UHGV virus genome: UHGV-1343268
DNA: 17,098 nucleotides
Origin: a virus
Strand: one strand, 5' to 3'
Of the stretch, positions 1,324 to 16,911 are shown piece after piece. A program made the translations under genes and the position numbers. Below the pieces are notes generated by a model, which was not told the origin of the DNA, made no database searches, and saw only the letters and a list, made by a program, of their open reading frames with translations. How positions within the stretch are numbered: the first letter of the stretch is position 1; each line of letters opens with the position of its first letter.

Positions 1324-1584
1324 TTAATTCTGAGGTAAAGGCAAACTCATCTGATTGTTTCCCCTGTGTGAAGCTGGCAGCTCATGCCACGGGATACCTT
1401 CCGAAGAGTGAACGCCGGAGGCGTGTTTTGATGTGAATTTATGGAAAGCTTCCAGTGTTGAGAAGCATACGCCGCATTCCAGGTTGTTACACTGGTAATA
1501 CTTTTGCCGCACAGTGTTTGAATCGTTTTCCGGACGACTGGTGCGGATTCGGGCAGATGCGCCACAAAGCGGACAACGGAACAT
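1324..1584 (-). CDS. ogr: Ogr/Delta-family zinc-finger late-gene transcriptional activator
   Basis: N-terminus MFRCPLCGASARIRTSR...YYQCNNLECGVCF has the C-x2-C...C-x4-C arrangement and MF-CPLC start recalled for P2 Ogr. Strong SD (AAGGGAGG) 5 nt upstream of the ATG at 1584. Lies downstream of D as in P2. At 86 aa it is longer than P2 Ogr (72 aa). Confidence 0.8.
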   Translation of the reverse strand: MFRCPLCGASARIRTSRPENDSNTVRQKYYQCNNLECGVCFSTLEAFHKFTSKHASGVHSSEGIPWHELPASHRGNNQMSLPLPQN

Positions 1585-3013: not shown

Positions 3014-3412
3014 GAAATTAATGTTCTATAACAAAAACACTTATCGAAAATAGGTGTAATTTATCACTCCGGCAGCTAAAAGATCATCTGCCACATGCAC
3101 GATAATAAATCTTCCTTGCGTCATCATCTCCCTCTGTTCTTAAATCAGGTGTTGCCTGTGTGCGGAGGATTCGCGAAGTACAGTAGCCGAAATGCATGAT
3201 CTTACCCATCAATGGTGAGCACGCGATAATAAGTGAGTCCCTAATTGACCACTCATGGCAATACAACTTCAACCAGCATTCATGACCACTATCCGTGGAT
3301 TAACTGTTACATAAGCAACACCTGCTCTAGGCACAAAGCGGGCTGCCAGATTGGGTCTGGCACTGTGCTGTGAGTGTGTCAGTTCTGGTTTGAGTCAATA
3401 CATCTAATTTGC

Positions 3413-4513
3413 TCATTCTGTTTCTGCTATCCATTCCGGGATTTTTGCTTCAAGCTCAAGCTGTGTGGTAAAGCCGCTGTTATCAATGGTGTGCTCGGCT
3501 TTTGCAATAATCCAGTCCTGATTATCGATGTCACTTTTGAAGCCTGTCACCGTGCCATGCATTTCGGGATAGAGTTCTGCGCGTCCACGCGCCAGCGTGA
3601 TGGAGAATGATGCGGCTCCGCGTTGTAGCTGCTGCCACTTTGCCGCCGCTGCACGTCTTGCTGCCTGCTCGTTCTGATAAGTCTTGCGTAACACAAACAC
3701 GTTGCCTTCCGCACCTTCCATATAGTCACCTTCACGGCTGCTGCTTTTCTCCTTTTTCGGTTTGCGGCGTTTCACGCTGACTTTTTTCTTTTTCCCGTAA
3801 TTAAGATCAAGCCAGTAAGCACGTACCCCCGTATACGCTTCGCGGTCAGCAATGCGGAACTGATGGCGATCGCCACTGCTGCGCGTGATGGCGAACGATG
3901 GCAACGGCTGGCCCTGTGCGTTCACGCCACCGCCTGGCATGATGAATAACAGATTACTGCTTTTTACCGTAGTGATTGCGCCCAGCATTTCCGCCATGCG
4001 CGTAAGGAAGGACATGTCGCTTTCTTCGGTCTGGTCGGCGTGGTCGATTTCAATATCCATCAGCATTTCGCTGATTTGTGGTTTCAGACCGTACCGATGA
4101 GCGATGGCGGATACCACGCGCTCAACGGTCACATCATGCCAGGACACCTCACGTTTAACGTTAAATTCATCCCGAAAATCTGCGCTTCTGGCTGAAACAG
4201 TCAGCCTGTCCGGCGGTCCTTCGTGAGCGATTTCATCAACAATGTAAGTGCCTTTTTCTGTCAGCGGTTCTCCTTTCCAGCCAATGAGAACCGTCAGGCG
4301 CGCGCCCCGTGGCGGTAGCTGCAACTGACCATCCGCATCATCCAGCGTGATGGTGAGCAGGTCCGCTTCAAATCCCCGGTTGTCGGTCAGTGACAGGCTC
4401 ATCAGGCGCTCTGCCACGCCGGACAGTGTTTCCCCCTCCGCGAGAATATCAAAATCCGGCATTTTCACGGGGTCTGTGCTCTGACTGAGCAATTGCATGG
4501 TGGTATCGGTCAT
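3413..4513 (-). CDS. D: P2 gpD-like tail protein (late control D family)
   Basis: Supplied ORF 3413..4645; the likely start is the internal ATG at 4513 (MTDTTMQLLSQ...) preceded by GGGAGGGA. Length (about 366 aa) and sequence character are consistent with the gpD family; position next to ogr matches P2 synteny. Confidence 0.88.
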   Translation of the reverse strand: MTDTTMQLLSQSTDPVKMPDFDILAEGETLSGVAERLMSLSLTDNRGFEADLLTITLDDADGQLQLPPRGARLTVLIGWKGEPLTEKGTYIVDEIAHEGPPDRLTVSARSADFRDEFNVKREVSWHDVTVERVVSAIAHRYGLKPQISEMLMDIEIDHADQTEESDMSFLTRMAEMLGAITTVKSSNLLFIMPGGGVNAQGQPLPSFAITRSSGDRHQFRIADREAYTGVRAYWLDLNYGKKKKVSVKRRKPKKEKSSSREGDYMEGAEGNVFVLRKTYQNEQAARRAAAAKWQQLQRGAASFSITLARGRAELYPEMHGTVTGFKSDIDNQDWIIAKAEHTIDNSGFTTQLELEAKIPEWIAETE

Positions 4514-4670
4514 CTGTTCCCTCCCTGTGCGGCATGGTCGCATGTGCGTGCATAGGGGGTTACTGCTTTTTGTTGTCGCCGTGGCGGGAGAACGGCGCAG
4601 GGGAGAGATTACGCGCGTGGTGGGTGATGATTGTTGCCGAATCATTTAACGGATACAAGGGGCTGAAGCT

Positions 4671-5855
4671 ATGAGTGAAACTCGTTTTCATGGTGCCCGT
4701 GTTACGGAAAGTACCGACCTGGTAACAGCGATTAATGATGTTGATTCCAGTGTTATCGGTATCGTGGCAACGGCGGATGATGCGGACGCGGAGCTGTTCC
4801 CGCTGAACAAGCCCACACTGCTGACCCGCGTCAATGACGTGCTGGGAAAATGCGGGACTACGGGGACGCTTTATCGTGCGCTTAAGGCTATTGCAGACCA
4901 GGTGAGCACAAAAGTGATCGTCGTTCGCGTGGCTGAACACAAAGAAGAAGGCGGTAAGACGCAGGATCAACTGGTTATCGGTGGTTCTGAATCTGACGGC
5001 AGCTATACGGGGATGTATGCGCTGCTTGTTGCAGAGCAGGATGAAAGCATCGGATACCGTCCGCGTATTCTGGCCGCGCCGGAGCTGGACACGGAGGCGG
5101 TGACAAAATCCCTGTGCGTGATTGCGGGTAAACTGCGCGCGTTTGTGTATGCCTCATGTCATGACTGTAACACGATGGCTGAGGCAATTACCTACCGCCA
5201 GAAATTCAACGAACGTGAGGTGATGCTCTTATGGCCGGACTTCATCGCCTACAACCCGAAAAGTGGCAAAAACGAAACGTTCCCCGCGCCTGCCTATGCG
5301 TGCGGCCTTCGTGCGTACATTGACCATGAGCAGGGCTGGCACAAATCGCTGTCCAACGTTCCTGTTAAAAATGTGCTGGGGATGTCCAGGCATGTTTTCT
5401 GGTCGTTGCAGGCCGAAGACAGTGATGCCAACAGCCTCAACAACAAAGAAATCACGACCATTATTCGTCGCAACGGGTTCCGCTTCTGGGGCAACCGCAC
5501 ACCGGAAACGAACGCCTACATCTTTGAGGTGTATACCCGAACCGCACAGGTGCTGGCTGATTCAATTGCGGAAGCGCAGTTTGAAACCATCGACAGTCCA
5601 CTGACGCCTGCGAACGTGAAGGATGTTATCAGTGCCATCAGGGCAAAACTGGATTCGCTGGTTACTGCCGGGAAACTGATTGGCGCGGAGTGCTGGTATG
5701 ACGTGGTGGATAACAGCACCACGGATTTACGTCAGGGGCGTGTGCGTATTCGCTACAAATATACGCCCGTTCCGCCACTGGAAGACATGGAGCTTTACCA
5801 GACGTTTACTGATGAATACTTTGAACCCGCATTTGCGGTGCTGGGAGGTGCCTGA
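4671..5855 (+). CDS. FI: Contractile tail sheath protein (P2 gpFI-like)
   Basis: 394 aa. Shares recalled gpFI motifs: DADAE-FPLNKP near the N-terminus, LRAF, WPDF, EQGWHK-LSNV, RRNGFRFWGNRT, YTRTAQV, YKYTPVPPLE. SD AAGGGG 8 nt upstream of the ATG. Confidence 0.93.
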   Translation: MSETRFHGARVTESTDLVTAINDVDSSVIGIVATADDADAELFPLNKPTLLTRVNDVLGKCGTTGTLYRALKAIADQVSTKVIVVRVAEHKEEGGKTQDQLVIGGSESDGSYTGMYALLVAEQDESIGYRPRILAAPELDTEAVTKSLCVIAGKLRAFVYASCHDCNTMAEAITYRQKFNEREVMLLWPDFIAYNPKSGKNETFPAPAYACGLRAYIDHEQGWHKSLSNVPVKNVLGMSRHVFWSLQAEDSDANSLNNKEITTIIRRNGFRFWGNRTPETNAYIFEVYTRTAQVLADSIAEAQFETIDSPLTPANVKDVISAIRAKLDSLVTAGKLIGAECWYDVVDNSTTDLRQGRVRIRYKYTPVPPLEDMELYQTFTDEYFEPAFAVLGGA

Positions 5856-6367
5856 TGGCTGTACCAAAACATCTTCGCTTTTTTACGCTGTTTGTGGATG
5901 GTGAAAACGAAGTGGGTAAGGTGACGTCCGTCACTCTGCCTAAGCTGACGCGCAAAACCGACAGCTACCGGGGTGGTGGCATGATGGGTGCGGTAAGTAT
6001 TGATCTCGGTCTGGACGACTCCGCGCTTGATGCGAGCTTTGTCATGGGGGGCGCAGTTCGTGAGCTGTTCCTTAAGTATGGCGGCACGATTGACGGCACG
6101 CTGCTGCGTTTTGCGGGTGAATATTACACCGATGCAGAAAGCGACCTGTATGAAGTCGAAATGCGCGGACGTGTGACGGAAATTGATATGGGGGAAGCCA
6201 AACAGGGCGAAGCCACATCACACACTTACGCCATTAAAAACACCTACTACAAGCTGAGTGTTAACGATCGCCCGTTGTGGGAGATTGACCTGCTGAACTT
6301 CATTTACCGGAAGGACGGCAAGGACATTGTGCCCGATCGCATCCGTTCCGCGCTCGGGCTTGGCTGA
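5855..6367 (+). CDS. FII: Tail tube protein (P2 gpFII-like)
   Basis: 170 aa. Start overlaps the FI stop (TGATG) with GGGAGGTG as SD. Has the LPKLTRK...YRGGGM motif recalled for gpFII. Sits immediately after the sheath gene as in P2. Confidence 0.9.
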   Translation: MAVPKHLRFFTLFVDGENEVGKVTSVTLPKLTRKTDSYRGGGMMGAVSIDLGLDDSALDASFVMGGAVRELFLKYGGTIDGTLLRFAGEYYTDAESDLYEVEMRGRVTEIDMGEAKQGEATSHTYAIKNTYYKLSVNDRPLWEIDLLNFIYRKDGKDIVPDRIRSALGLG

Positions 6368-6421
6368 TAAGTAATATGCAGGCGGCGCAGTGCGTCGCCT
6401 CTGACTGAAAGGAGTTTCCTG

Positions 6422-6787
6422 ATGAAAGAGACGAAAAACATCGATACCGAAAACACGGTAGTTGCTGACACTGTGAAAGAAACCAGTGAGCGTGGTGTAA
6501 AACTTACCCAACCAATTGAGCGAGGCGGCGAAAAAATCACGTATGTGGAGATCACCGGGGCTATTGAGCAGGCTGGATCTCTGCGAGATTTGTCGCTGTC
6601 TGATGTGCTGAATCTGAAAGCGGAATCCATGTTTACGCTGCTGTCACGCGTGACATCACCGCGACTGGATGAAGTGACGATCAAAAAAATGGCATCCCGT
6701 GACTTTATTCAGTTATGTGTGGTTGCCGTAAATTTTTTGAGCGGTGCGGACTCTGGCGGGAAGAACGAACAGGCGACGGAAGCCTGA
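6422..6787 (+). CDS. E: Tail assembly chaperone (P2 gpE-like), zero-frame product
   Basis: 121-aa ORF with SD AAAGGAG, placed between the tube and tape-measure genes. Contains the slippery site TTTTTTG at 6733-6739. Confidence 0.85.
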   Translation: MKETKNIDTENTVVADTVKETSERGVKLTQPIERGGEKITYVEITGAIEQAGSLRDLSLSDVLNLKAESMFTLLSRVTSPRLDEVTIKKMASRDFIQLCVVAVNFLSGADSGGKNEQATEA

Positions 6788-6951
6788 TCACGGTTGTGTG
6801 CTTTGAGCACATAGAAGACTTTGTGGCAGATATTGCCGTTATTTTTAACTGGTCGCCCGCCGAAATCTTCATGATGACGCCCGGCGAAGTGGTTAGCTGG
6901 CGTGAGCGGGCGGCACTTCGCAGCGGGAATGCAGACAATGAAGACTCTTGA
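6422..6951 (+). CDS. E': gpE+E' fusion chaperone made by programmed -1 ribosomal frameshift
   Basis: The overlapping ORF 6715..6951 is in the -1 frame relative to E (start coordinates 6422 and 6715 differ by one in frame) and has no plausible start of its own. The heptamer T6G at 6733-6739 sits in the overlap. This matches the conserved E/E' frameshift of P2 and the analogous lambda G/GT. The E' ORF ends where T begins. Confidence 0.75.
6733..6739 (+). promoter_or_regulatory. Slippery heptamer TTTTTTG for the -1 programmed frameshift E to E'
   Basis: Seen in sequence, in the E/E' overlap with the correct frame relationship. Confidence 0.7.
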
Positions 6952-9745
6952 TATCCGGGTCGCTTTCAGCGCCGTTGACAGGCTGACCCGGCCTGCCGAA
7001 AACGCCCGCCGCCTGATGGGGCAGTTTGGTGACTCCATCCAGCGAACGCAGGGGGCGATTAAAAATCTCGAGCGTCAGGCTCGTTCATTTGAGCGCGCCC
7101 GCGACGCTGTCAGTAAAGCGGATGCGGGTATCGTGAAAGCACGACGCCAGCTTAACGCCCTTAATCAGTTACAACGCACGGGTACAGTGCTCAGCGAAAA
7201 ACAACAAAAGCTGATGCAGCAGTTAAGCACCCGGCTTGAACGCCTGAATGAATCGCGCACACGGGAAATTCAGAAAATGCGGGAGCTTGGCGGAGAGCTG
7301 AAACGCCACGGCATTTCCCTGACAGGCAGCGATAACACCATCCAGCAGGCCATCAGACGCACCGAACAGTACAACAACCAGCTTGAACGCGAACGGCAGG
7401 CGCTTGCGCGTGTAACGCGGGCGCGTGAGTGGTATTCGCGCGCGCAGGAAACCGCGGGAAAACTGAAAACAGGTGGTGCGCTGGCAATTGGTGCGGCAGC
7501 GGCGGGCGGCTATGCTGCCGGGCGTTTTTTGCAGCCCGCGATCGGGTTCGGCAAAGAGATGTCCCGCGTTCAGGCGCTGACGCGAATCGACCAGAACAGC
7601 CCGCAGTTTAAGGCGCTGCGTGAGCAGGCGTTAAAACTTGGCTCTGAAACGCAGTTCACCGCAGGCGATGCCGCCAGTGGGCAGGCATTTCTTGCAATGG
7701 CAGGCTTCACACCGCAGGCCATTCAGGCTGCGCTTCCCGGAGTGCTGAGCATGGCAACGGCTGGCGGTATGGATCTCGGCGAGACGGCAGATATTGGCTC
7801 AAATATCCTGACGCAGTTCGGCCTTTCTGCTGACCAGATGGACCGGGTCGGTGACACACTCACCGCAGCGTTTACCCGTACCAACACTGACCTTCGCGCA
7901 CTGGGCGAAACCATGAAATATGCAGGTCCGGTGGCGGGTAAGCTGGGAATATCGCTGGAGCAGGCCGCAGCGATGGCTGGTGTGCTGGCGAATATGGGCA
8001 TCAGAGGGAGTGATGCCGGGACGGCAATGCGTGCCAGCCTGGCTCGTCTGGCATCACCGCCAAAGGCGGCGGCAGAAGCTCTGAAAGAGCTGGGCGTGTC
8101 CGTCTCGGATGCCGGGGGTAAAATGCGCCCGATGGAGGATGTGCTGGCCGACCTTTATAAAGCCACCCGCAAATACGGGGAAGTTGACCGGGTATCGTTC
8201 TTTAAGGACATTGCCGGAGAAGAGGCTTTCACATCGTTTATGGCGCTCGTTGATGCAGTGGGTGACGGTTCCTTACCCAAACTGAGAAAAGAACTTGAAG
8301 GCGCGCGCGGTGAGGCTGAACGCACAGCAAAGGTTATGGCCAACAACCTTGACGGCGATCTGAAATCACTCGGCAGTGCATGGGAAGGGTTGCGCATCCG
8401 CATTGCAGATCTGATTGACGGTCCGCTGCGTTCTGTCACGCAGTGGCTCACGCGGGTGGTATCAAGGGTGACGGCGCTGGCGCAGGCCCATCCGGCACTG
8501 ACGCGCCAGCTACTGATAGCAGGCGGTGCGTTGCTGGCAATGACTGCAACGGTTGGCTCGTTGTCGCTGGCTATTGGTGTGCTTGCTGGTCCGCTGGCAA
8601 AACTGCGTCTTGGTTTTTCTCTCCTGACCGGATCAATGAATGCTGTCAGGGTCCTGCCAGCACTATGGGGAATGGTGACGGGTTCCGTTTCTTTACTGGG
8701 AGGCGCTATCGGGGCGCTGTTCAGTCCGGTTGGTCTTATCGTGGCTGCGCTTGCCGGAGCTGCCGTCCTTATCTGGAAATACTGGGATCCCATCAGGGCA
8801 TTTTTTGCCGGGGTGTTCAGCGGGATTATGGAAAGGCTGAACCCGTTGCGTGAAACCTTTGAACGGTTTGGCCCTGTTTTTGACGCAATCGGAAGCGGGA
8901 TCAGCCAGGTGTTTAACTGGTTTAAATCGCTGCTGTCACCGATGGAGTCCAGCAAGGAAACGCTGGATAAATGTACCAGTGCTGGCGAGATATTCGGTAA
9001 CGTTCTTGGCGGTGCGTTACAACTTGTTCTGACACCTGCAAAAATGCTACTGGATACGCTGGCGTGGATACTTGAAAAACTTGGCGTCCTTCCGGATGAA
9101 GCGGAAAGGGCGCGCAAGAAAATCGAAGACGCACAGCGTGCGGCCATTCTTCAGGATAAGGTTGCCTTACTTCAGGGGGACCTGGCGAAAATCAATCCGC
9201 CGAAGCCTGTGGAAAATGGCAATGGCACCGGAGGTGATAAACCCAAAGACAACAAACCGCTCACAGACAGCAATACCGGGACGCTACGCAGACTCAGCAA
9301 AATTGCTGATAACACAGGTAAGCTGGTTGATGAGACGAAAAAACGCATTGGCCCTGGCGATATTGTCTTTAAGAACCTGCCCCGCGCACTTGCTGTTCGT
9401 GGGGAGTGGCAGGAGCGGAAGATTGCGCAGGTCAGTAAGCCTGCCCCCGCAATTAATATCACACCCGTAGTCCCGGCTCCGCTGCCTCCGGCGCTGGTCC
9501 CTGTTGTTGCGGCCAGCTCCCGCCCGGTGGCGGAGGCCATACGATCGCCAGTGGCATCAGTTCCTGCAGCTTCCCGTAATCGGGAGCCTGCTGTCTCCAG
9601 ATTTGGCGGTGAAATTCATGTTCATCTGCATAACGTTGTTACGCAGAATCCCCGCGAACTGGCGAAACTGGTCGGTGAAATGGTCAGGGCAGAAATGGAA
9701 CGGCGCGCCCGTGCCGGGCGTGGCAGTTTTTACGATAAAGATTGA
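6938..9745 (+). CDS. T: Tail tape measure protein (P2 gpT-like)
   Basis: Very long ORF (supplied as 6902..9745, 947 aa). Coiled-coil-rich N-terminal half, hydrophobic Gly/Ala-rich segments in the middle, located directly after E/E'. Start is uncertain among GTG 6902, ATG 6929 and ATG 6938; 6938 is chosen because GGGA lies about 9 nt upstream. Confidence 0.9.
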   Translation: MKTLDIRVAFSAVDRLTRPAENARRLMGQFGDSIQRTQGAIKNLERQARSFERARDAVSKADAGIVKARRQLNALNQLQRTGTVLSEKQQKLMQQLSTRLERLNESRTREIQKMRELGGELKRHGISLTGSDNTIQQAIRRTEQYNNQLERERQALARVTRAREWYSRAQETAGKLKTGGALAIGAAAAGGYAAGRFLQPAIGFGKEMSRVQALTRIDQNSPQFKALREQALKLGSETQFTAGDAASGQAFLAMAGFTPQAIQAALPGVLSMATAGGMDLGETADIGSNILTQFGLSADQMDRVGDTLTAAFTRTNTDLRALGETMKYAGPVAGKLGISLEQAAAMAGVLANMGIRGSDAGTAMRASLARLASPPKAAAEALKELGVSVSDAGGKMRPMEDVLADLYKATRKYGEVDRVSFFKDIAGEEAFTSFMALVDAVGDGSLPKLRKELEGARGEAERTAKVMANNLDGDLKSLGSAWEGLRIRIADLIDGPLRSVTQWLTRVVSRVTALAQAHPALTRQLLIAGGALLAMTATVGSLSLAIGVLAGPLAKLRLGFSLLTGSMNAVRVLPALWGMVTGSVSLLGGAIGALFSPVGLIVAALAGAAVLIWKYWDPIRAFFAGVFSGIMERLNPLRETFERFGPVFDAIGSGISQVFNWFKSLLSPMESSKETLDKCTSAGEIFGNVLGGALQLVLTPAKMLLDTLAWILEKLGVLPDEAERARKKIEDAQRAAILQDKVALLQGDLAKINPPKPVENGNGTGGDKPKDNKPLTDSNTGTLRRLSKIADNTGKLVDETKKRIGPGDIVFKNLPRALAVRGEWQERKIAQVSKPAPAINITPVVPAPLPPALVPVVAASSRPVAEAIRSPVASVPAASRNREPAVSRFGGEIHVHLHNVVTQNPRELAKLVGEMVRAEMERRARAGRGSFYDKD

Positions 9746-9751
9746 GGAGTC

Positions 9752-10246
9752 ATGGCCATGATGATGATCTACGGCATGTTTGTTTTTGAGCTGCGCACGT
9801 TGCCGCATCAGCAGTTACAGCAAAATAAAAGCTGGCGGCATGTGAAAAATGAACGCGTTAACCGTTCAGCAAGCTGGCAGTATATCGGGGCAGGCGATGA
9901 TCGCATCGTTCTTTCTGGTGTGCTTTATCCTGAAATTACAGGTGGCGAAGTGTCGCTTTCGTTGCTGACCACGCAGGCATATACAGGACGCCCCTGGCCT
10001 CTGATTGATGGTGTCGGGCAGATTTACGGCATGTATGTACTGACTGAAACGAATACGACCCGCTCCGAGTTTGATCGCTACGGTAAGGCGAAAAAGATAG
10101 AATTTTCACTGACTCTTGAACGCTGTGATGAGGATTTGCGGGAGCGCCTGCAATCCTCATCGTTCAGCGATATGTTGTCCGGCTTCAAAGATAAGGTGAC
10201 ATCATCCCTTAATAGCGCGGCCAGCTCAGTTAAGGGGCTGCTCTGA
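9752..10246 (+). CDS. U: Tail protein U (P2 gpU-like)
   Basis: 164 aa, SD GAGGAG, immediately downstream of T. Size and position match P2 gpU. Confidence 0.82.
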   Translation: MAMMMIYGMFVFELRTLPHQQLQQNKSWRHVKNERVNRSASWQYIGAGDDRIVLSGVLYPEITGGEVSLSLLTTQAYTGRPWPLIDGVGQIYGMYVLTETNTTRSEFDRYGKAKKIEFSLTLERCDEDLRERLQSSSFSDMLSGFKDKVTSSLNSAASSVKGLL

Positions 10247-10322
10247 TTTAACGTATGTCGCCAATTTCCTGATGAAGGTGACTGGCGACTTGCTGTTGTA
10301 TGTCCTTCTCAGAAAATTGTTT

Positions 10323-10351
10323 TTGAATAACAAACAACAGGATTTTATAAT
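10323..10351 (+). promoter_or_regulatory. Near-consensus sigma70 promoter for the acetyltransferase cargo gene
   Basis: TTGAAT (10323-10328), 17-nt spacer, TATAAT (10346-10351), in an AT-rich intergenic region about 50 nt upstream of the cargo gene SD. Confidence 0.6.
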
Positions 10352-10402
10352 CTCTTAACCTTATAACATGTGTGGTCTGAAATAATAATTAAGGAGATTA
10401 TC

Positions 10403-10975
10403 GTGCTGTCTTACCTAATGGCAATTCACTTTGTTTTATTTGGGAACTCTACTAATTTAAAAAACTTCTGGAAACATGAAGTAATTCGGCGGAAACGTAT
10501 GGATATCTGGAGGCTTTTAAGAGAGAAAAAGCAGCGTAACAGGAATTTCCTTTTCTGGTGGCGGTTGGCTAACGAAATGTATATTAATGGTAATAAATTA
10601 CATAAGAAAGCAGCCAAGAAGTTAAACAGTAAAATAATTAACAAATTTGGTTGCGAAATTGGATTGGGCGCAAATATTGGAAAAGGGTTAACAATTCCCC
10701 ATCATGCTGGAATTGTTGTTCATTTTGCTGTTGATGCTGGTGAAAATCTGGTGTTACGACAGAATACGACCATTGGACAGATAGATGGTGACATACCTGG
10801 TTCAAGAGTAAAAATTGGTAGCAACGTTGATATCGGAGCTAATTGTTGCATCATTGGATTATCCCGTAAAATTGGGGATAATGTAAAAATAGGTGCAATG
10901 TCTTTTATAAATAAAGATATACCATCGAACTGCACATATATAACTAAAAAGAGCGGTGCTGTATTGTATAAATAG
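10403..10975 (+). CDS. Hexapeptide-repeat acyltransferase, serine-O-acetyltransferase (CysE/WcaB)-like; cargo gene
   Basis: The C-terminal half carries repeated [LIV]-G-x-x-x-x hexapeptide units (IGLGANIGKGLTI, KIGSNVDIGANCCIIG, KIGDNVKIGAMSFI) resembling the left-handed beta-helix of CysE-type acetyltransferases. Strongly AT-rich. SD AAGGAG (10391-10396) precedes an in-frame GTG at 10403; the ATG at 10418 is an alternative start. The supplied ORF begins at GTG 10370. Confidence 0.78.
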   Translation: MLSYLMAIHFVLFGNSTNLKNFWKHEVIRRKRMDIWRLLREKKQRNRNFLFWWRLANEMYINGNKLHKKAAKKLNSKIINKFGCEIGLGANIGKGLTIPHHAGIVVHFAVDAGENLVLRQNTTIGQIDGDIPGSRVKIGSNVDIGANCCIIGLSRKIGDNVKIGAMSFINKDIPSNCTYITKKSGAVLYK

Positions 10976-10984
10976 AGTACATAA

Positions 10985-11020
10985 AGCCATCGATATTTCT
11001 ATCGATGGCTTTTTCTTTTT
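10985..11020. terminator. Strong intrinsic terminator between the convergent acetyltransferase and tfa genes
   Basis: Perfect 11-bp stem AGCCATCGATA (10985-10995) / TATCGATGGCT (11000-11010), loop TTTC, then TTTTCTTTTT. The T-run overlaps the tfa stop codon. Confidence 0.75.
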
Positions 11021-11597
11021 ATTGTGGGGCGACTGGCCACTCAATATCTGCTGCTACTGTTGTATCAACACGATGCAACAATACTCGATATGTCTTCCAT
11101 GCAGCCAGTAACGATGTCTCTTCCTCCGTCGCAATATCTAAATCTATAGCATCCTGAAGTGGTGCAATATGCTCACTGGCTACCTGCATCAGGCTGTTTT
11201 TTGTTTCTTCCGCCTCCCTTATCCGAAATAGTTTTTCTGCTTCTGCATCTTTCACCCAGGATGTGCCGTTCCACTTCTGATACTCTCCATACGGCGACAA
11301 CCAGGTAACATTTTCCGGTAATGGACCGAGTTCAGAAATAAATAACGAGTCCCCTGATGCCACGTCATAAACCGTTTTACCCCGATGGTCTTCAACGAGA
11401 TGCCACGATGCCTCATCACTGTTGAAAACGGCCACGAAGCCAGCCGGAATATCTGGCGGGGCAATATCGGTACTGTTTGCAGGCAGACCTGTATGAGGTG
11501 GAATGTATGCATCACCTTCACCAATAAACTCATTGGTTCCGGTCAGTAGATTATAAATTTTTATGGTCCGTGAGTGTTCACTCATTCTGAATGTCAT
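11019..11597 (-). CDS. tfa: Tail fibre assembly chaperone (lambda Tfa / P2 gpG class)
   Basis: 192 aa. C-terminal [30 protein letters not shown] resembles the conserved Tfa C-terminus. The start ATG overlaps the tail-fibre stop (TAATG), indicating translational coupling. Confidence 0.85.
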
Positions 11598-13916
11598 TAT
11601 GCAAGCCTCACAATATAGTTAAATGCGATGTTTTTTACGGTGTTTTCTTTGTTACCCGTAGCGTTAACGGTGATGGTGTGTCCGTGGGGACCAATAATGA
11701 CAGAATGGGCATGAGCACCAATGCCGATAGTGTGGTTATGGGCACCGATATATACATTGTGAGCATGCCCGCCTGCGCTCGACGTGGTACCAGTACCTAA
11801 CGCAGCGTTATAACCGGCTGATACACCATTCCCCGCGCCAGTGTGACCAACAGGTATATTGTGTGAATGATTTCCAGCGCTATTCGTAGTTTTTGTGCCG
11901 TAATCAAATGAACTGGTCGTTTTAGTACCGTAATCAAACGACGATGTGGTTTTCGTCCCCAAATCCGTACTGGATGCGCTGGCGCTGTGGGTGTGCGATT
12001 TAATGCCGTCCTGTTCCTGAGACAATACGGCACGACCACTGCCGGGCTTGCCCTTAATCGTCCAGCCACGCATATCAGGAATAACGCCTGACGGATAAGC
12101 GACTGCAAGTTTCGGGTATGCAGATTTGTCAAAAGTCTGCCCCTGCATCAGGGCATAGCCAGACGGAACGGTATCTGATGGCCACGGGATTGGTGCACCG
12201 ACTGGATAAAACTCTGCAGGAGGATGAGCCGAGGTGTAAAGCTGCGCCCACGGCGACCAGTTTGCGTCGGTCGTATCCCGTCGTGAACGAATAAATGCCG
12301 GAGCATGAGCACCGCTTGTACCACTCCAGCCGATGAGTAACTCACCTTCGCCAACGGCTGTCATCCCTTTCAGGTGAATGATATTTCCATACGCTGTTGG
12401 ATATCCGTTGTTATACACCTCGTATAACTCAAGACCTGTTGCCCCCTGCGTATTGTCTGTCAGCGCGGTTACCCGACCTTTTGAAGACAGATTAACTGAT
12501 GATACTGCTGTTCCACCTGACGGTAATGCCCCGATCTCTGATGCCGTTGGCTTATTTCTGGAGTTATAGTCCCTTCGCCAGCCAGGTGAATAATCTGNNN
12601 NNNNNNNNNNNNNNNNNNNNNNNNNNNNNNNNNNNNNNNNNNNNNNNNNNNNNNNNNNNNAATGCGGATCGTCATCGCTGACTTTATCCCCATTACTTCA
12701 ATGACAGCTCCTGCGAGATGAATATTACCGCAGCCAGTATCAGTAATGATTTTATTATTGCCATAAGACCAGGAACCCTTGCACATCCAGTATGGATGGT
12801 TAAATGCTCCCTGAGAATCCAGCCACTCGATAAACTGTGCAGTCGTCCAGTCTCCTGTTGTTGTGCTTACTGACCCACCGAAGGCACGGCTGGCACCAAT
12901 ATTTTTCGTAAAGGTGTCTTTGCCAGGGATATCCGCACCGTTCTTATCTTTCTGCAGACGTTTCTCAGCATTGTCATTGGCTGCTTTTACTGCCTTTGGC
13001 GTTGCTGCCAGCGTTTCAGACGTGCTGTTGGTCGCGCTGCTTAGCTGGACTATCCCTTTCTGTGCTGTCGTTGCATCCTGTGCGGTGTATTTCCCGTCAG
13101 CCAGGTCATACGCGGCCTTAACTGCTTTTGGCGTTGCCGCCAGCGTTTCAGACGTGCTGTTGGTCGCGCTGCTTAGCTGGACTATCCCTTTCTGTGCTGT
13201 CGTTGCATCCTGTGCGGTGTATTTCCCGTCAGCCAGGTCATACGCGGCCTTAACTGCTTTTGGCGTTGCCGCCAGCGTTTCAGANNNNNNNNNNCAGCCA
13301 GGTCATACGCGGCCTTAACTGCTTTTGGCGTTGCCGCCAGCGTTTCAGAATCGCTGTTAGTGGCGCTACTGAGTTGAACAAAGCCTTTTGCGGTCAGCGA
13401 GGCATCCGGGTGACATCGTGACTGTTCATGCTCTTTCAGTTTGTTATCCACGTAATCCACTGTGGCCATCACCATGGTGTTATCCACGGTAAGCGCCACA
13501 GTGGCAGTGCTGGATACGGTCAGAATGGTGCGAAATGTTTGTGCACGTCCGGACCCTTCGGCAACGGCTGGCTTGTAACTTTCGGCAGTATTGCCCACCG
13601 CGATTAAATCGCCGTGCTCATCAAACACACCAATTTCCCGGATCCAGAATCCGCCCGTTTCTGGAGGAATAACCAGCTCCGCAATAATGCGGTTCTGATG
13701 TGTTGCGTCCAGGATGACGCGATTAACAGTGTGTCGCCACACCTCATGCACCAGACGGGTCTGCTTACTGTCTGGTGTGGGCAACGCGCCGCCACCGTCG
13801 CCCACGGCCATATGAGTCAGGCGGACAGGCTTACCATCTGGCGCGGCTGCCTGAGCTAATTTTTTGGCACCTGTATCGGTGATAACGGTTTTAAATTTTC
13901 GTGTTGTGGTACTCAT
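11597..13916 (-). CDS. H: Mosaic tail fibre protein (P2 gpH-like N-terminus, lambda Stf-like C-terminus); interrupted by two N-runs
   Basis: N-terminal ORF (13916 downward) [24 protein letters not shown]...HEVWRH...[15 protein letters not shown]...[13 protein letters not shown]...[20 protein letters not shown] matches the gpH N-terminal baseplate-attachment region as I recall it. C-terminal segment ...[34 protein letters not shown]...HxH repeats...[11 protein letters not shown] matches the lambda Stf-type tip. By manual translation the frame is continuous from the 12598-12660 gap to the stop at 11597. True length and frame across the gaps cannot be determined. Confidence 0.82.
12598..12660. 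other. Run of 63 ambiguous bases (N), assembly gap or masked segment inside the tail fibre gene
   Basis: Seen in sequence. Confidence 0.95.
12981..13400. repeat. Tandem 132-bp direct repeats (44-aa coding units) inside the tail fibre gene
   Basis: Units 13021-13152 and 13153-13284 appear identical on reading. Diverged partial copies flank them (about 12981-13020 and 13295-13400). The 10-N run at 13285-13294 replaces roughly 77 nt of a unit. On the coding strand the unit encodes ...[44 protein letters not shown]... Confidence 0.9.
13285..13294. other. Run of 10 ambiguous bases (N) inside the tandem-repeat array, probably a collapsed-repeat gap
   Basis: Seen in sequence; the flanking sequence shows repeat phase is not preserved across the N-run. 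Confidence 0.95.
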
Positions 13917-13918
13917 GC

Positions 13919-14449
13919 TTAATCGTCCGGATAAATGGTAATAACTTCACCGTCATGAGTTGCCGCCGCTGCAAAAATATCCCCCGGAATTTCCTGAATG
14001 ATATTCAGCCCTGTCATGTGGCGGCTGACCGGACGGGCATCAGCAATCAACCGCTCCATTTCCAGATACATTTCCTCCGTCACGCCACTGTCCAGTGTGC
14101 CGACTTCAACGGTAAATGTTCCCGGTTCTCCGCCGAACTCCCACCACTCAGACACGCGAATGAGGTATCCCAGCGGCTCAATGGCCCTGCGCAGTGCGCT
14201 GATGGTCCCTTTGTGTCGGTGTGTCAGCCATGCATCACGAATCACCTGTCGTTTTGTCTCTTCCGGCCAGTTGCGATCCCAGCGGTCAACGGAAAATGCC
14301 CAGGCGAGATAAGGCAGCAGGTGCACCGGGCAGGTGTCCGGCGACCACAGCGTGTTGAGGTCTACCGGGATGTCTGTAATGCGCGTTCCGACAGCTTCGG
14401 CACAACGCATGAAACTGCTGGCTGATGGTGGTAACAGTGAATTACTCAT
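13919..14449 (-). CDS. I: Baseplate protein (P2 gpI-like)
   Basis: Supplied ORF 13919..14482; the likely start is the internal ATG at 14449 (MSNSLLPPSASSFMRC...), which overlaps the J stop (AATGAGTAA). Motifs LW-PDTCP and LPYLAWAFSVDRWD match recalled gpI. Sits between J and H as in P2. Confidence 0.88.
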   Translation of the reverse strand: MSNSLLPPSASSFMRCAEAVGTRITDIPVDLNTLWSPDTCPVHLLPYLAWAFSVDRWDRNWPEETKRQVIRDAWLTHRHKGTISALRRAIEPLGYLIRVSEWWEFGGEPGTFTVEVGTLDSGVTEEMYLEMERLIADARPVSRHMTGLNIIQEIPGDIFAAAATHDGEVITIYPDD

Positions 14450-15338
14450 TGCGCCCACCTTCGCTGATGGTGAACGACTCACAGCGCGCCGCCTGTATGT
14501 CGCTGATGGCCATATTCTGTGTGGGTTCGATTATCTCCACGCGTTGCACACCGTGCACATGCAGTGCGGCAGCAATGGCGGACAACGCCACGTCCTGACC
14601 GATAAGCCCCTGCTCAGCCAGCCACTTCCTGAACGACGATTCAGCCGCCGCCAGAATAGGTTCGGATTCCGGGCCGGGGTAAAAGTACAGTTTTGCATTC
14701 AGCCGCCATGTCACGATTCTGGCGCTCTGTACCGTCAGGCGGTCGGCCACCGGGCGGGTATCCTCTGCATTCAGAACGGCGCGAACGGTATTAAGCAACG
14801 CCTCCGTTGCTGTGCCGTCGCCTTCAGTGGACAGGATGGAAACCGTCACATTTGCCGGAGACGGACTGATAGCCCGCGCATCACGCACCAGACCGCTGGC
14901 GCTGCGGGCAAAATACTCGTATGCACCTGACGGGCCAGCAACACTCAGGCCATCGTACGCCCGCTGCGCCCGCAGTCTCAGCGATGTGTCGCTTTCCATC
15001 ACCGCGTCGGTGGTATCCGTTGCCGGAGTGATAACCAGGCGCTTTGTGTTCATATTGCCCGCGAGGTTGTCCAGGTCTGTCCCGGTGCTGTGGCTTAACA
15101 TGCAGGCGCGTGCACCCTCATTGACCCGCTGGCGTAACAGCATTTCACGAAACGCTGTTGTCTGGGCGATAACGTTCAGGGGTTCCGATTCCAGCTCCAG
15201 CGCGGCGGAGACGGCTTCACGCTGTTCGGCAGGATAGGACGCAATCATCATGGCCTTTGTGTCAGCCAGAATTGCCTCAAAATCAGGCTTCGCGATGATG
15301 GCGGGTTCCGGTAACTGGGAAAGGTCAACAGCAGGCAT
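14442..15338 (-). CDS. J: Baseplate assembly protein J (P2 gpJ-like)
   Basis: 298 aa, between W and I, size as expected for gpJ. Assignment rests mainly on synteny and size. Confidence 0.88.
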   Translation of the reverse strand: MPAVDLSQLPEPAIIAKPDFEAILADTKAMMIASYPAEQREAVSAALELESEPLNVIAQTTAFREMLLRQRVNEGARACMLSHSTGTDLDNLAGNMNTKRLVITPATDTTDAVMESDTSLRLRAQRAYDGLSVAGPSGAYEYFARSASGLVRDARAISPSPANVTVSILSTEGDGTATEALLNTVRAVLNAEDTRPVADRLTVQSARIVTWRLNAKLYFYPGPESEPILAAAESSFRKWLAEQGLIGQDVALSAIAAALHVHGVQRVEIIEPTQNMAISDIQAARCESFTISEGGRNE

Positions 15339-15341
15339 GAT

Positions 15342-15692
15342 TTACTCCCTCAGCGTGATGGTTAACTCAACATTCTGCATGGTCTGCATGACAGTGCCCG
15401 ACAGCGTCACCCCGGCGCGGCCTCCCGCTTTCCAGACAACGTCGATGGCATCCAGGGCAATGCGGGGTTCCCATCGTGTCAGCGCAATCACGGCAGCACT
15501 CATGCATTGCAGACGCGTGGTGTTATTCATGGGTTCGTCAATCAAATCAGGCACAAGGCTGCCATATTCCCGTCGCATAACCCGGCTGGCCAGCGGGGTG
15601 GTCAGGATGTCCCTGACTGACTGTTTCAGGTGCTCCGTATCGTTCAGGTTTCCCGTCCCGTCCGGATTCATTCCTGTGTAGCGGGTTGTCAC
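15342..15692 (-). CDS. W: Baseplate wedge protein W (P2 gpW / T4 gp25-like)
   Basis: 116 aa, size and position (V then W then J) as in P2. Start overlaps the V stop (ATGA). Confidence 0.85.
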   Translation of the reverse strand: MTTRYTGMNPDGTGNLNDTEHLKQSVRDILTTPLASRVMRREYGSLVPDLIDEPMNNTTRLQCMSAAVIALTRWEPRIALDAIDVVWKAGGRAGVTLSGTVMQTMQNVELTITLRE

Positions 15693-16270
15693 TGCGGGCC
15701 TCCTGTCGAATCGCTGCCACCTTTAACGCCACCGTGTTTATGCGTATGCACTGTGATACCGTTTGAGGTGAAATTGCCGCCGCTGTGCGTGATATTGCCG
15801 CTCATCTTTCCCCCTTTTGTGACGTCAAGCGTCGCCGTTCTCAGAAGGTTTGTGCATTCCACGACGGGCGTATCCAGTTTCACGCTGACGGATGCCTGCA
15901 GGCTGGCTGTTTTCATGCCGCTGGCGCTCAGTGCGCCAGCGTCTGCGTCGTAGCGGAACACCGCGCCGTCCGGTGCGGTGATCACGATTTCTTTCAGGCT
16001 TTTGCCGGGGGCCGGACTGGCATCACTCCACAGACTGCCAATTATCATGGCGGTTTCCGGGTTGCCGCCAATGCAGGCAATTACCACCTGTTCGCCTGGT
16101 GATGGCGGTAGCCACACATTGAAGGCTCCCGCGCGCGTGGTGTTCCAGCGCAGCCAGCCTGTTTCCAGTTCGCCGCTGCGAACGCGCACGCGCCAGGACT
16201 TCTCATCAACTTCAGAGATGATCCCGGTGCGGATGATGTTGCTCAGCAGTCGCATGAGTTCTGCGCTCAC
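15689..16270 (-). CDS. V: Baseplate spike / assembly protein V (P2 gpV-like)
   Basis: 193 aa with a Gly-rich C-terminus; lies upstream of W. Start overlaps the stop of the preceding gene. Confidence 0.85.
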   Translation of the reverse strand: MSAELMRLLSNIIRTGIISEVDEKSWRVRVRSGELETGWLRWNTTRAGAFNVWLPPSPGEQVVIACIGGNPETAMIIGSLWSDASPAPGKSLKEIVITAPDGAVFRYDADAGALSASGMKTASLQASVSVKLDTPVVECTNLLRTATLDVTKGGKMSGNITHSGGNFTSNGITVHTHKHGGVKGGSDSTGGPQ

Positions 16271-16911
16271 CGTACAGCCTCCGCAATCCGGCCCAGCACC
16301 GTGTTATAAATCAGGCGCTCATCTGCCTGGCTGATACCCAGCAGCTCACGTACCGGGTAATCGGTGAAAATGCCCGGCGCAACCTGATCGCGCTCACCGA
16401 ACTGATGAACGCGTGCAATACGTGCGGCCACGCCGCTGTAACCCACCGTCACACCGGAAGCATCTGCACGGGCTTTCAGGTAGCGGGCGGTGCGCAGTTT
16501 TACGAACATGGGGACGCGCCTGGTGCTGTCCTGGTTGATGCGCTGGGTGCGTATTTCCAGAAAACGGTCAATGTCATCCCGGTAAAACGTGCGGATATTG
16601 TTTTTATCCTCATCCCACCCGGTAATGGTTCGCCCGTATTTCCCCGTGTCGTGATGCCAGTTTTTCAGCGTGCGTGCTTCGTTATTCCAGATAAAGCGAA
16701 TGCGCTCCTGTATCCGGGTTACGCGGCGTCTGCGTGGTGTCCATTCGGTCCCGTCCGGCGCTTTTTGTGACCGGATACGTGCCTGCTGGGCGCGACGTAA
16801 ATCCTGTGCCAGCTTTCTGGCGATGTTATTGATGGCCTGCTGATTCAGGCTGTCGCGGATAGCCTCAAAGGTTTCATCCACGCGGGTGAATGCCTTATCC
16901 ATCGCTTTCAC
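16267..16911 (-). CDS. S: Virion morphogenesis / tail completion protein (gpS-like)
   Basis: 214-aa ORF immediately upstream of V on the same strand, the position of P2 S. Start is GTG at 16911 or ATG at 16902 (GGGG about 8 nt upstream). Assignment rests mainly on synteny; it is larger than P2 gpS (about 150 aa). Confidence 0.55.
   Translation of the reverse strand: MKAMDKAFTRVDETFEAIRDSLNQQAINNIARKLAQDLRRAQQARIRSQKAPDGTEWTPRRRRVTRIQERIRFIWNNEARTLKNWHHDTGKYGRTITGWDEDKNNIRTFYRDDIDRFLEIRTQRINQDSTRRVPMFVKLRTARYLKARADASGVTVGYSGVAARIARVHQFGERDQVAPGIFTDYPVRELLGISQADERLIYNTVLGRIAEAVR

Follow-up and report, generated by a model that had tools for sequence, protein, structure and literature searches.

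The tail region of the 17,098-nucleotide stretch of viral DNA analysed here (UHGV virus genome UHGV-1343268, a P2-like E. coli prophage; hereafter the window) carries, at positions 10247-11020, an AT-rich cargo unit that encodes a serine acetyltransferase (SAT)-like acyltransferase of the left-handed beta-helix (LbH) superfamily. Comparisons with other genomes indicate that the gene is dispensable moron cargo and not a conserved P2 structural gene, and that it moves with the tail-fibre assembly gene (tfa) and the fibre tip as a cassette among unrelated phages. We see about an even chance that its product is an O-acetyltransferase of an envelope glycan, probably the LPS core, which masks the phage receptor.

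Layout of the cargo unit and its neighbours

The unit has a GC content of 0.36, as compared to 0.53 in its flanks, and is made up of a TTGAAT-17-TATAAT site, an AAGGAG Shine-Dalgarno sequence, a 190-aa ORF and a 13-bp hairpin terminator (Table 1). An earlier note on this DNA had listed a promoter, a Shine-Dalgarno sequence, an ORF and a terminator in an AT-rich unit, and each of them was found where that note had placed it. The neighbours are gpU on one side and a convergent tail-fibre assembly gene on the other.

Table 1. Coordinates of the cargo unit's elements and of the adjoining genes in the window
Feature	Position	Strand	Evidence
gpU tail gene	9752..10246	+	PF06995 E 5.5e-39, phrog_76
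Imperfect inverted repeat GTCGCCA...TGGCGAC just 3' of U	10257..10289	+	14-nt arms, 79% complementary
Sigma-70-like promoter TTGAAT-17-TATAAT	10323..10351	+	10/12 consensus positions
Shine-Dalgarno AAGGAG	10391..10396	+	6 nt upstream of GTG 10403
Acetyltransferase CDS, 190 aa	10403..10975	+	GTG 10403 to TAG 10975; phrog_2154 E 3e-86
Intrinsic terminator	10983..11020	+	perfect 13-bp stem 10983-10995 / 11000-11012, 4-nt loop, T-run to 11020
Tail-fibre assembly (chaperone) gene, gpG/Tfa equivalent	11019..11597	-	PF02413 (Caudo_TAP) E 1.1e-40, phrog_105
Tail-fibre gene, gpH equivalent	11597..13916	-	Collar domain, phrog_295; N-terminal part matches Phage_tail_fib

gpU is the last gene of an inverted FI-FII-E-T-U block, and the acetyltransferase gene (AcT in the gene orders below) is here co-directional with this late FI-U operon. 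The unit had been described as an insertion between U and the tail-fibre genes; the position is right, and the reading as an insertion at that junction is not, because the neighbourhood of U and the tail fibre results from inversion of the FI-U block in this lineage, and in relatives with the canonical gene order the slot is the P2 hotspot between G and FI (Z/fun). gpU lies outside the mobile cassette, as homology with other AcT-bearing backbones ends to the right of gpU, at about 10300. The imperfect inverted repeat just 3' of U, which from its sequence could mark where the U transcript stops, is not within the shared cassette either.

An invertible segment in this window is ruled out, since 9000-14500 has no long inverted repeats and there is no invertase ORF; L183 and JL22 differ in this respect. 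We note that the tail-fibre gene holds two runs of N, at 12598-12660 and 13285-13294.

The promoter-like site, proposed earlier as a near-consensus promoter, indeed agrees with the consensus at 10 of 12 positions, and 51 nt separate the end of its -10 element from the start codon. In the 17-kb window, counting either strand, no more than five sites reach 10/12 matches or better, this one among them. When the 156-nt intergenic region is shuffled, a match of this quality turns up with P ~0.055, a figure that makes the match suggestive and not significant alone. L174 and L143, whose lineage retains only 70% amino acid identity in the ORF, have exactly this site; it is degenerate in L133 and L142, and P1-like elements have TTGACA-18-TAAAAT instead. 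Inspection by eye found no P2 late-promoter dyad (TGT-N12-ACA) upstream of the gene. From the consensus match we infer that the gene may be expressed from the repressed prophage. AT-rich DNA may be silenced by H-NS, and such silencing of this gene is possible given its AT-richness. The Shine-Dalgarno sequence and its spacing are kept in all four of these relatives (L174, L143, L133 and L142), and homologues have ATG at the position aligned with the GTG start.

The hairpin downstream deserves its earlier description as a strong terminator: the perfect 13-bp stem folds at -18.1 kcal/mol (z = -6.5), and 0 of 200 shuffles folded as well. It occupies the 43-nt gap between the two convergent stop codons, overlaps the tfa stop codon (11019-11021), and is conserved in P2-like, P1-like and L133-type elements.

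An Rfam scan of 9700-11700 gave a single real match (IS009, inside tfa) and no match to the promoter and leader. Sub-threshold Qrr and ncr1575 matches on the terminator hairpin were taken as noise.

Fold and subfamily of the acetyltransferase

The protein has a helical N-terminal domain (residues 1-82) followed by an LbH domain, with a variable loop at residues 126-135. Pfam Hexapep stays just under its cut-off (23.9 bits vs 27), and 20 NCBIfam LbH families match at E <= 0.002, including EpsC (6e-21), cysE (1e-16) and WcaB (2.5e-14). PDB sequence matches are serine acetyltransferases and cover residues 54-180. The AF2 monomer model has a pLDDT of 85.5, and the best 50 Foldseek matches in the PDB are all LbH serine acetyltransferases (TMq 0.58-0.71). 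The earlier assignment to a hexapeptide-repeat, SAT-like acyltransferase of about 190 aa is thus borne out by NCBIfam matches, model and fold comparison alike. The catalytic dyad is kept in the family: the position of CysE D143 is Asp or Glu in 34 out of 34 members (Glu85 here), that of CysE H158 is His in 33 out of 34 (His100 here), and the catalytic residues are invariant across genera. By analogy with the LbH superfamily, the protein is presumably a homotrimer with active sites at the subunit interfaces. Membrane anchoring and a signal peptide were rejected, because no hydrophobic segment was predicted (maximum 19-residue hydropathy, KD19, 1.1).

As to the subfamily, profile comparison places the protein among SAT/WcaB-like enzymes and below the equivalog cut-offs of both CysE and WcaB. 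The family profile is nearer to WcaB (hhalign E 3.5e-23, 35% identity, probability 99.5%) than to CysE (E 1.9e-17, 27% identity), and WcaB's own NCBIfam matches come in the same order as those of the phage protein, with EpsC ahead of cysE. The protein is not a WcaB equivalog, because it scores 53 bits vs the cut-off of 196, and its location differs too, as the gene sits in a prophage tail region outside the wca cluster. The CysE cut-offs are missed widely (61.1 bits vs 210.65 for TIGR01172, cysE; 36.1 vs 397 for PRK11132). Xenobiotic (CatB/Vat-type) models are absent among the NCBIfam matches.

At the residue level, the profile alignment to CysE begins at CysE residue 112, so that most of the SAT N-domain is absent, Asp92 included; the protein's N-terminal part is about 82 residues long, with about 32 of these aligned to CysE helices. 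CysE D157, R192 and H193, which we take to bind serine/cysteine in the SAT structures known from E. coli and H. influenzae, correspond to Pro99, Ser134 and Arg135, positions that are variable across the family. The C-terminus (...SGAVLYK) is also variable and has no Ile tail of the kind that docks into CysK. A true serine acetyltransferase identity is made very unlikely by the missed CysE cut-offs, the absent N-domain and the unconserved serine-binding residues, and the database name 'serine acetyltransferase' is unsupported by these residue-level and HMM tests.

Two known systems are closest in fold. WcaB, the E. coli colanic acid O-acetyltransferase, and EpsC-type SAT-like acetyltransferases from exopolysaccharide loci are of a similar size class (162-190 aa) and share with the phage protein a short helical N-terminus, then an LbH domain, and the core G-x-[DE]-I ... 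HH-G-x-V-V. The phage gene, in contrast, is a lone gene on phages and plasmids, and its product stands apart by an N-terminal motif, FWWRLANEMY, and by a strand that reads RQNTTIG. CysE (e.g. PDB 1T3D, 4N69, 6WYE) has the two-domain fold and the Asp/Glu-His dyad in common with the phage protein, which differs in having neither the ~110 N-terminal SAT residues nor the serine-binding residues and the CysK-binding tail.

Cargo status and linkage to tail-fibre cassettes

Of 50,697 phage records, only 15 have a homologue, and in the sister prophage EcPF18, with a U gene 96% identical, the slot is filled by a DNA invertase together with a different fibre cassette; both results agree with the earlier view of the gene as cargo rather than a structural component. 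The gene is found in 530 of 5426 complete E. coli genomes (~10%). Its carriers include many listed as human isolates, strain 55989, strains named O55:H7 and O111:H11, and P1-like phage-plasmids. Judged at the sequence level, the unit has the marks of a moron, namely its own promoter and terminator and a deviant composition, and it is an ordinary kind of prophage cargo. Across alleles dN/dS is 0.12-0.26 with dS up to ~1.9, and 73 of 74 copies are intact, which indicates purifying selection; the gene has also been kept intact together with tfa in an IS-eroded prophage remnant.

This slot is already known in P2 as the Z/fun hotspot; fibre swapping and invertases have been described for a hotspot that lies between FI and the tail-fibre genes (preprint 10.1101/2024.10.15.618418). 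We found no functional study of the gene in the literature. The sole paper that discusses it calls its role unknown (PMC9603915), and the role of 'sacF' in JL22 is explicitly given as unknown.

The proper place of the gene is at the 3' end of tfa. Out of 72 viral loci, 62 have a convergent tfa or fibre gene at most 400 bp downstream of the acetyltransferase gene. Among species-level genome loci, 75 of 79 have no tail-fibre or tfa gene within that distance, and some of these 75 are still in or beside prophages or plasmids. Nucleotide identity profiles show that the C-terminal tip of the fibre co-transfers with tfa and the acetyltransferase gene, the latter lying exactly at mosaic breakpoints. 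Such cassettes were seen on several backbones: P2-like prophages with inverted FI-U; P2-like elements with the canonical order G-AcT-FI, where the late operons on both sides run antisense to the gene, which therefore must be self-transcribed; P1-like elements, where it lies inside the cin-invertible C segment; and lambdoid and E217/DUF2612-type myovirus prophages. The fibre-tip/tfa cassette (~92% identity) is present without the acetyltransferase gene in 4515 of the 5426 genomes, K-12 included, so the linkage could be mere hitch-hiking at a module boundary.

Candidate function and its alternatives

Across the 79 species-level loci, neighbouring gene families are mostly heterogeneous and informative in a minority. 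For most species-level homologues (40-50% identity) the neighbours are uninformative, e.g. POT transporter/GGDEF in Rahnella, and many homologues are stand-alone genes on plasmids or at prophage ends. The informative contexts are a Xenorhabdus prophage with int, AcT-GT25 and a putative fibre gene (a fibre by synteny only), a Gilliamella prophage in which AcT-GT9 is convergent with the side tail fibre and J, the order GT9-AcT-LbH in Orbaceae, and hldE-msbA-LPS kinase-AcT-neuB in Halopseudomonas/Pseudomonas. The putative association with the LPS core comes from these four independent neighbourhoods; two of the LPS-core contexts of distant homologues are prophage pairs adjoining tail-fibre genes.

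Among the roles proposed in the earlier note, genomic context favours the modification of a surface glycan. A specific O-antigen or capsule target, also proposed there, is less likely than a serotype-independent one, because the carriers include differently named serotypes and because the contexts in Orbales, Halopseudomonas and Xenorhabdus speak for the LPS core. To our knowledge, textbooks do not list O-acetylation among the modifications of the LPS core in E. coli.

The envelope-glycan reading would run as follows. The protein would be soluble and cytoplasmic and would act as an O-acetyltransferase that depends on acetyl-CoA, as a member of the SAT/WcaB-like branch within the LbH superfamily; its Glu85-His100 dyad would deprotonate the acceptor hydroxyl. 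The acceptor would most likely not be L-serine; it would rather be a sugar of an envelope glycan built on the cytoplasmic face of the inner membrane, with the LPS core (or LOS) as the leading candidate and O-unit, ECA or colanic acid intermediates as alternatives. An acetylated structure would then appear on the surface of the lysogen, and masking of the receptor could provide superinfection exclusion against phages with related fibres and lower the number of progeny lost on cell debris. Side effects on serology or on the interaction with the host are possible. Since the gene is exchanged as one block with the fibre tip and its chaperone, receptor masking would be the most economical role.

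A genuine serine O-acetyltransferase, acting as an auxiliary metabolic gene that raises the O-acetylserine/cysteine supply in the lysogen or during phage growth, would fit the RefSeq and PGAP name (serine (O-)acetyltransferase), the nearest solved structures and fold matches, which are all SATs, and the conserved dyad. We consider it very unlikely in view of the scores far under the equivalog cut-offs (61 vs 210.65 for cysE; 36 vs 397 for PRK11132), the missing N-domain with Asp92, the unconserved D157, R192 and H193, the ...VLYK end instead of the CysK-binding Ile tail, the profile nearer to the polysaccharide enzyme WcaB, and the cysE gene that E. coli already has. Acetylation of a small molecule, a metabolite of the nucleotide-sugar pool, an antibiotic or a phage-related molecule, with detoxification, anti-phage defence or counter-defence as the outcome, draws on the richness of the P2 Z/fun slot and other P2 hotspots in defence cargo (PMC9122126; preprint 10.1101/2024.10.15.618418), on weak matches to LbH enzymes such as LacA and Maa (E 1e-6 to 1e-4), and on the many stand-alone homologues without glycan genes nearby. 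However, PADLOC matched no defence-system family at E <= 0.01 (a result that speaks neither for nor against an exclusion role), CatB/Vat-type models are missing from the NCBIfam matches, the strongest relatives are SAT/WcaB/EpsC-type, and the informative neighbourhoods hold LPS-core glycosyltransferases and kinases, so we regard this explanation as unlikely.

The position beside tfa (in 62 of the 72 viral loci and across five or more phage backbones) also allows for a service to the virion, in which the enzyme modifies or helps to assemble the tail fibre or its chaperone. This is highly improbable: the fibre tip and tfa do without the gene in the 4515 genomes mentioned above, as do cultured P2 and most phages, the gene is usually antisense to the late tail operon and has its own promoter-like site and terminator, and 75 of 79 species-level loci have no such downstream neighbour, although some of these are in or beside prophages or plasmids. 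Least credible of all is the idea of a now functionless gene at a recombination boundary, either a selectively neutral passenger or a remnant in decay, as might be read from the location exactly at mosaic breakpoints and the degenerate promoter of some carriers. It is already largely contradicted by the dN/dS values over dS up to ~1.9, the 73 intact copies out of 74, the catalytic residues invariant across genera, and the intact copy in an eroded prophage remnant.

Phage genes with roles comparable to the proposed one lend the envelope-glycan reading some precedent. NeuO is a soluble LbH enzyme of prophage CUS-3, with a gene that adjoins the tailspike gene. It belongs to an LbH subfamily different from that of the phage acetyltransferase, and no NeuO entry appears among the PDB sequence matches at E <= 0.01 or the best 50 fold matches. 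Phase variation of the NeuO type, through tandem heptanucleotide repeats at the 5' end, was rejected, because a TRF scan of 10200-11050 gave no tandem repeat even with the minimum score set to 30. In PMC13001214, NeuO is described as a prophage-encoded O-acetyltransferase of the K1 capsule, a surface polysaccharide used by phages, that brings about lysogenic conversion with phage resistance. A difference from NeuO is that carriers of the present gene include strains that differ in named serotype (O55:H7, O111:H11).

P2 Z/fun cargo has the same position in the genome as the acetyltransferase gene, in the variable slot that separates FI from the tail-fibre genes. In T5, llp adjoins the receptor-binding gene, and cor lies downstream of the tail genes in phi80/N15-type phages. 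Both place a receptor-blocking function beside a receptor-binding gene, which for the acetyltransferase is a proposal. Exclusion phenotypes have been demonstrated for Z/fun, llp and cor, and their proteins are not enzymes of the LbH acyltransferase fold.

A further step, which we put forward tentatively and would not bet on, is that the acetyltransferase is the third part of an exchanged module of fibre tip, chaperone and receptor modifier, and O-acetylates an LPS-core or other serotype-independent sugar recognised by this fibre family. If so, a P2-like, P1-like, lambdoid or other phage that gains the fibre cassette would gain matched superinfection exclusion as well, and the variability of loop 126-135 together with intragenic mosaicism would reflect diversified acceptor specificity. 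On this module reading, the location inside the P1-like invertible C segment would keep the enzyme expressed whichever fibre is displayed.

If the envelope-glycan reading is untrue, the gene simply adds to the uncharacterised cargo of a known hotspot. It is carried by roughly a tenth of complete E. coli genomes and by P1-like phage-plasmids, in all of them under the label 'serine acetyltransferase'; if the reading is true, this annotation would need correcting, and a receptor-modifying enzyme would be genetically coupled to a receptor-binding cassette. Should the LPS core or another common envelope glycan be acetylated, the gene would be an unrecognised lysogenic-conversion factor for phage susceptibility, relevant to phage therapy and phage typing and possibly to serology or innate recognition.

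Layout of the acetyltransferase unit and its surroundings

The AT-rich unit described in the earlier note, with a TTGAAT-N17-TATAAT promoter, an AAGGAG SD, an ORF of about 190 aa and a strong terminator, is found in the window part by part (see the table). GC content is 0.36 in the acetyltransferase gene vs. 0.53 in its flanks, and the GTG start is supported by homologues, which have ATG at the aligned position. A promoter match of this quality has a chance of ~0.055 in shuffled spacers and, taken alone, is statistically weak; the site is unchanged at every base in L174 and L143, a lineage with ORF divergence down to 70% amino acid identity. The hairpin (folding energy -18.1 kcal/mol, z = -6.5) and its T-run occupy the 43 nt between the acetyltransferase stop codon and that of tfa, the convergent tail-fibre assembly gene.

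Features of the acetyltransferase unit and of the surrounding window
Feature	Position	Strand	Remarks
ogr	1324-1584	-	
SEC-C gene	1874-3013	-	379 aa
D	3413-4645	-	
FI-FII-E-T-U	4671-10246	+	
gpU	9752-10246	+	left neighbour; PF06995, E 5.5e-39
AT-rich spacer			156 nt, directly past gpU stop
Promoter-like site TTGAAT-17-TATAAT	10323-10351		inside spacer; consensus match 10/12
SD AAGGAG	10391-10396		6 nt ahead of GTG 10403
Acetyltransferase ORF	10403-10975	+	GTG 10403 to TAG 10973-10975; 190 aa
Terminator	10983-11012 (hairpin)		perfect 13-bp hairpin, then T-run
S-V-W-J-I-H-G	11019-16911	-	
Tail-fibre assembly gene	11019-11597	-	convergent with acetyltransferase gene
RF02111 (IS009) match	11056-11254	-	177 bits vs. 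gathering threshold 117
N runs in H	12598-12660, 13285-13294		
Tandem repeat in H	12965-13425		132 nt, 2.2-3 copies, 92-100% identity

Within 3413-16911, the FI-U block is inverted relative to D and S-G, unlike in P2, where these tail genes are all co-directional. The inversion is a real lineage trait, because the same layout is found in E. coli 55989 and in the 70%-diverged lineage L174-L177, and D must therefore be transcribed apart from FI-U. Between ogr and D, which abut in E. coli 55989, the window has an additional AT-rich cargo gene (GC ~0.40); its product has an N-terminal SEC-C zinc motif, its PADLOC matches are weak and motif-driven, and the gene is a possible defence candidate in the third P2 hotspot. 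The Rfam match is full-length and lies wholly within the tfa coding region, so what this family models may be a transcript derived from tfa and not an RNA gene in its own right. The N runs and repeat in the tail-fibre gene H suggest a repetitive shaft that is difficult to assemble or has been masked.

Fold, family and active site of the protein

The protein belongs to phrog_2154 of PHROGs (E 3e-86), a function-unassigned family. Its Pfam Hexapep score is slightly sub-threshold, its NCBIfam matches (EpsC 6e-21, cysE 1e-16 and WcaB 2.5e-14) are all far under the curated cut-offs, and its PDB sequence matches are serine acetyltransferases (SATs), limited to residues 54-180. The AF2 model (34 homologues as input, pLDDT 85.5) has five N-terminal helices followed by a beta-helix, and the best 50 Foldseek matches against PDB are SATs in 50/50 cases. 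These results bear out the proposed hexapeptide-repeat (left-handed beta-helix, LbH) nature of the protein; sequence searches assign it to the SAT-like branch within this superfamily, and the predicted structure agrees. In a profile comparison of the kind proposed in the earlier note, WcaB, the colanic acid O-acetyltransferase, is the nearer match to the family (E 3.5e-23, 35% identity); CysE gives E 1.9e-17 and 27% identity.

Using verified E. coli CysE and WcaB sequences as references, we found Asp/Glu at the CysE D143 position in 34/34 family members and His at the H158 position in 33/34, so the catalytic dyad is retained. The RefSeq name of the gene is 'serine acetyltransferase', and the SAT-type fold and the dyad fit the SAT likeness noted before; a true SAT, however, is contradicted, as four membership tests oppose it and leave the RefSeq name unsupported. 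The positions aligned with serine-binding CysE D157, R192 and H193 are not conserved across the family, and the acetyltransferase lacks both the Asp92-bearing part of the CysE N-domain and the CysK-docking C-terminal Ile. No transmembrane segment is predicted in its sequence. With the dyad kept, no such segment and SAT/WcaB-type profile and fold matches, the protein is a soluble, active-looking SAT/WcaB-like O-acetyltransferase.

Genomic slot and co-transfer with tail-fibre genes

The acetyltransferase gene is cargo and not a structural gene, as had been proposed. The exact unit is found in 530 of 5,426 complete E. coli genomes and on 35 PLSDB plasmids (mostly about 90-100 kb); by tblastn, just 15 of 50,697 phage records have a homologue. 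In the EcPF18 prophage (L183), whose U is 96% identical, the slot is taken up by a DNA invertase together with a different fibre-tip/chaperone set. Between U and H (6524-9227), this prophage has the recombinase, a fibre-tip fragment lacking a promoter and two tfa genes in convergent orientation, an arrangement that resembles a host-range switch of the Gin/Cin type within a P2-like phage. The location between U and the fibre genes holds for the window, but only because FI-U is inverted in its lineage: in more distant P2-like phages of canonical order (L144, L147, L148, L159 and L022), G and FI flank a 65%-identical homologue that is antisense to the late operons on either side. That position is the classical Z/fun hotspot, a mixed-purpose slot for fibre swapping and invertases (2024 preprint 10.1101/2024.10.15.618418). 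In a sister P2-like lineage (L174-L176, 7617-8605), the acetyltransferase is separated from the functional tfa by a tfa fragment (87 aa) and a class-I methyltransferase-like gene (222 aa), which speaks for repeated cassette insertion there.

According to nucleotide identity profiles, the shared block starts at ~10300, just 5' of the -35, and spans the gene, terminator, tfa and fibre tip; P1-like elements share homology from ~10500 only and have their own upstream region with TTGACA-18-TAAAAT. In L174, promoter and terminator are 92-98% identical vs. just 60-70% in mid-ORF, which points to mosaicism within the gene, focused on the LbH strands and variable loop 126-135. The acetyltransferase adjoins tfa in P2-like prophages of two gene orders, P1-like phage-plasmids, a lambdoid prophage with J, Stf and Tfa (L142) and an E217/DUF2612-type myovirus prophage (L134). 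In the P1-like phage JL22, 602-nt inverted repeats (3394-3995 and 8256-8857; 99% identity) adjoin cin and flank 4.26 kb with S-tip, U, acetyltransferase, tfa and stf-tip, so that the gene lies inside the P1 C-type invertible segment. Among the 72 viral loci with sufficient downstream sequence (many near-identical copies), 62 have a convergent tfa/fibre gene within 400 bp downstream.

A virion-assembly role is contradicted, since the gene is antisense and dispensable: 4,515 genomes, K-12 Rac and Qin included, have this fibre tip and tfa (~92% identical) but not the enzyme, and fibre function therefore does not need it. A neutral remnant is contradicted by purifying selection, which preserves the gene: pairs formed with the allele of the window have dN/dS values of 0.12-0.26 (dS reaching ~1.9), 73/74 full-length copies are intact, and in strain 319, where an IS3 element eroded the prophage, acetyltransferase and tfa persist. 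A small-molecule or defence enzyme is possible, with no specific support found and no PADLOC match for defence.

Gene neighbourhoods and proposed role

Neighbours of species-level homologues (40-50% identity) are mostly uninformative, and LPS-core-type genes are found beside homologues in four independent contexts. A Xenorhabdus bovienii prophage (L180/L181, 8001-9393) has an integrase, then co-directional acetyltransferase-GT25, facing a gene for a 404-aa protein without Pfam match (beside baseplate genes; a putative tail fibre by synteny with L134 only). In Gilliamella bombicola (L050, 8001-9800), co-directional acetyltransferase-GT9 converges on the side tail-fibre gene and J of a prophage; both pairs look like two-gene LPS-conversion modules. 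The order is GT9-acetyltransferase-second LbH protein on an Orbaceae chromosome and hldE-msbA-LPS kinase-acetyltransferase-neuB in Halopseudomonas and Pseudomonas species. Lone homologues adjoin integrases, lie at a prophage end beside hok and a copA-like P-type ATPase gene, or share a contig with a relaxase gene; one (50% identical) is found on EPEC EAF-type virulence plasmids (L169-L173, 7001-7594), just 3' of the bfp (bundle-forming pilus) operon, among IS elements.

Named serotypes differ among the listed E. coli carriers (O55:H7, O111:H11), which argues for a serotype-independent acceptor. We infer that LPS core is the leading candidate, because P2, P1 and Mu fibres bind it as their receptor. 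The enzyme would be a cytoplasmic, presumably trimeric LbH protein using acetyl-CoA. Its acceptor would be a sugar hydroxyl, activated by Glu85 and His100, of an envelope-glycan intermediate that is lipid- or nucleotide-linked and still to be exported; once acetylated, the surface would be bound less well by fibres of the type transferred with the gene and perhaps by other fibres too.

Such an exclusion gene adjoining a receptor-binding gene would resemble T5 llp and cor, exclusion genes so placed. The closest functional precedent is NeuO, an LbH enzyme on prophage CUS-3; NeuO is from another LbH subfamily and phase-variable, whereas no tandem repeats are found at the acetyltransferase gene. 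This prophage-encoded O-acetyltransferase acts on the K1 capsule and raises phage resistance (PMC13001214).

The annotated gene (noted as unexplained in one paper, PMC9603915), the hotspot and phage-borne LbH O-acetyltransferases as a kind are already known. What is new is that the acetyltransferase is shown not to be CysE, that it consistently moves together with fibre cassettes among unrelated phages and can lie inside a P1-type invertible segment, and that its relatives have LPS-core neighbourhoods.
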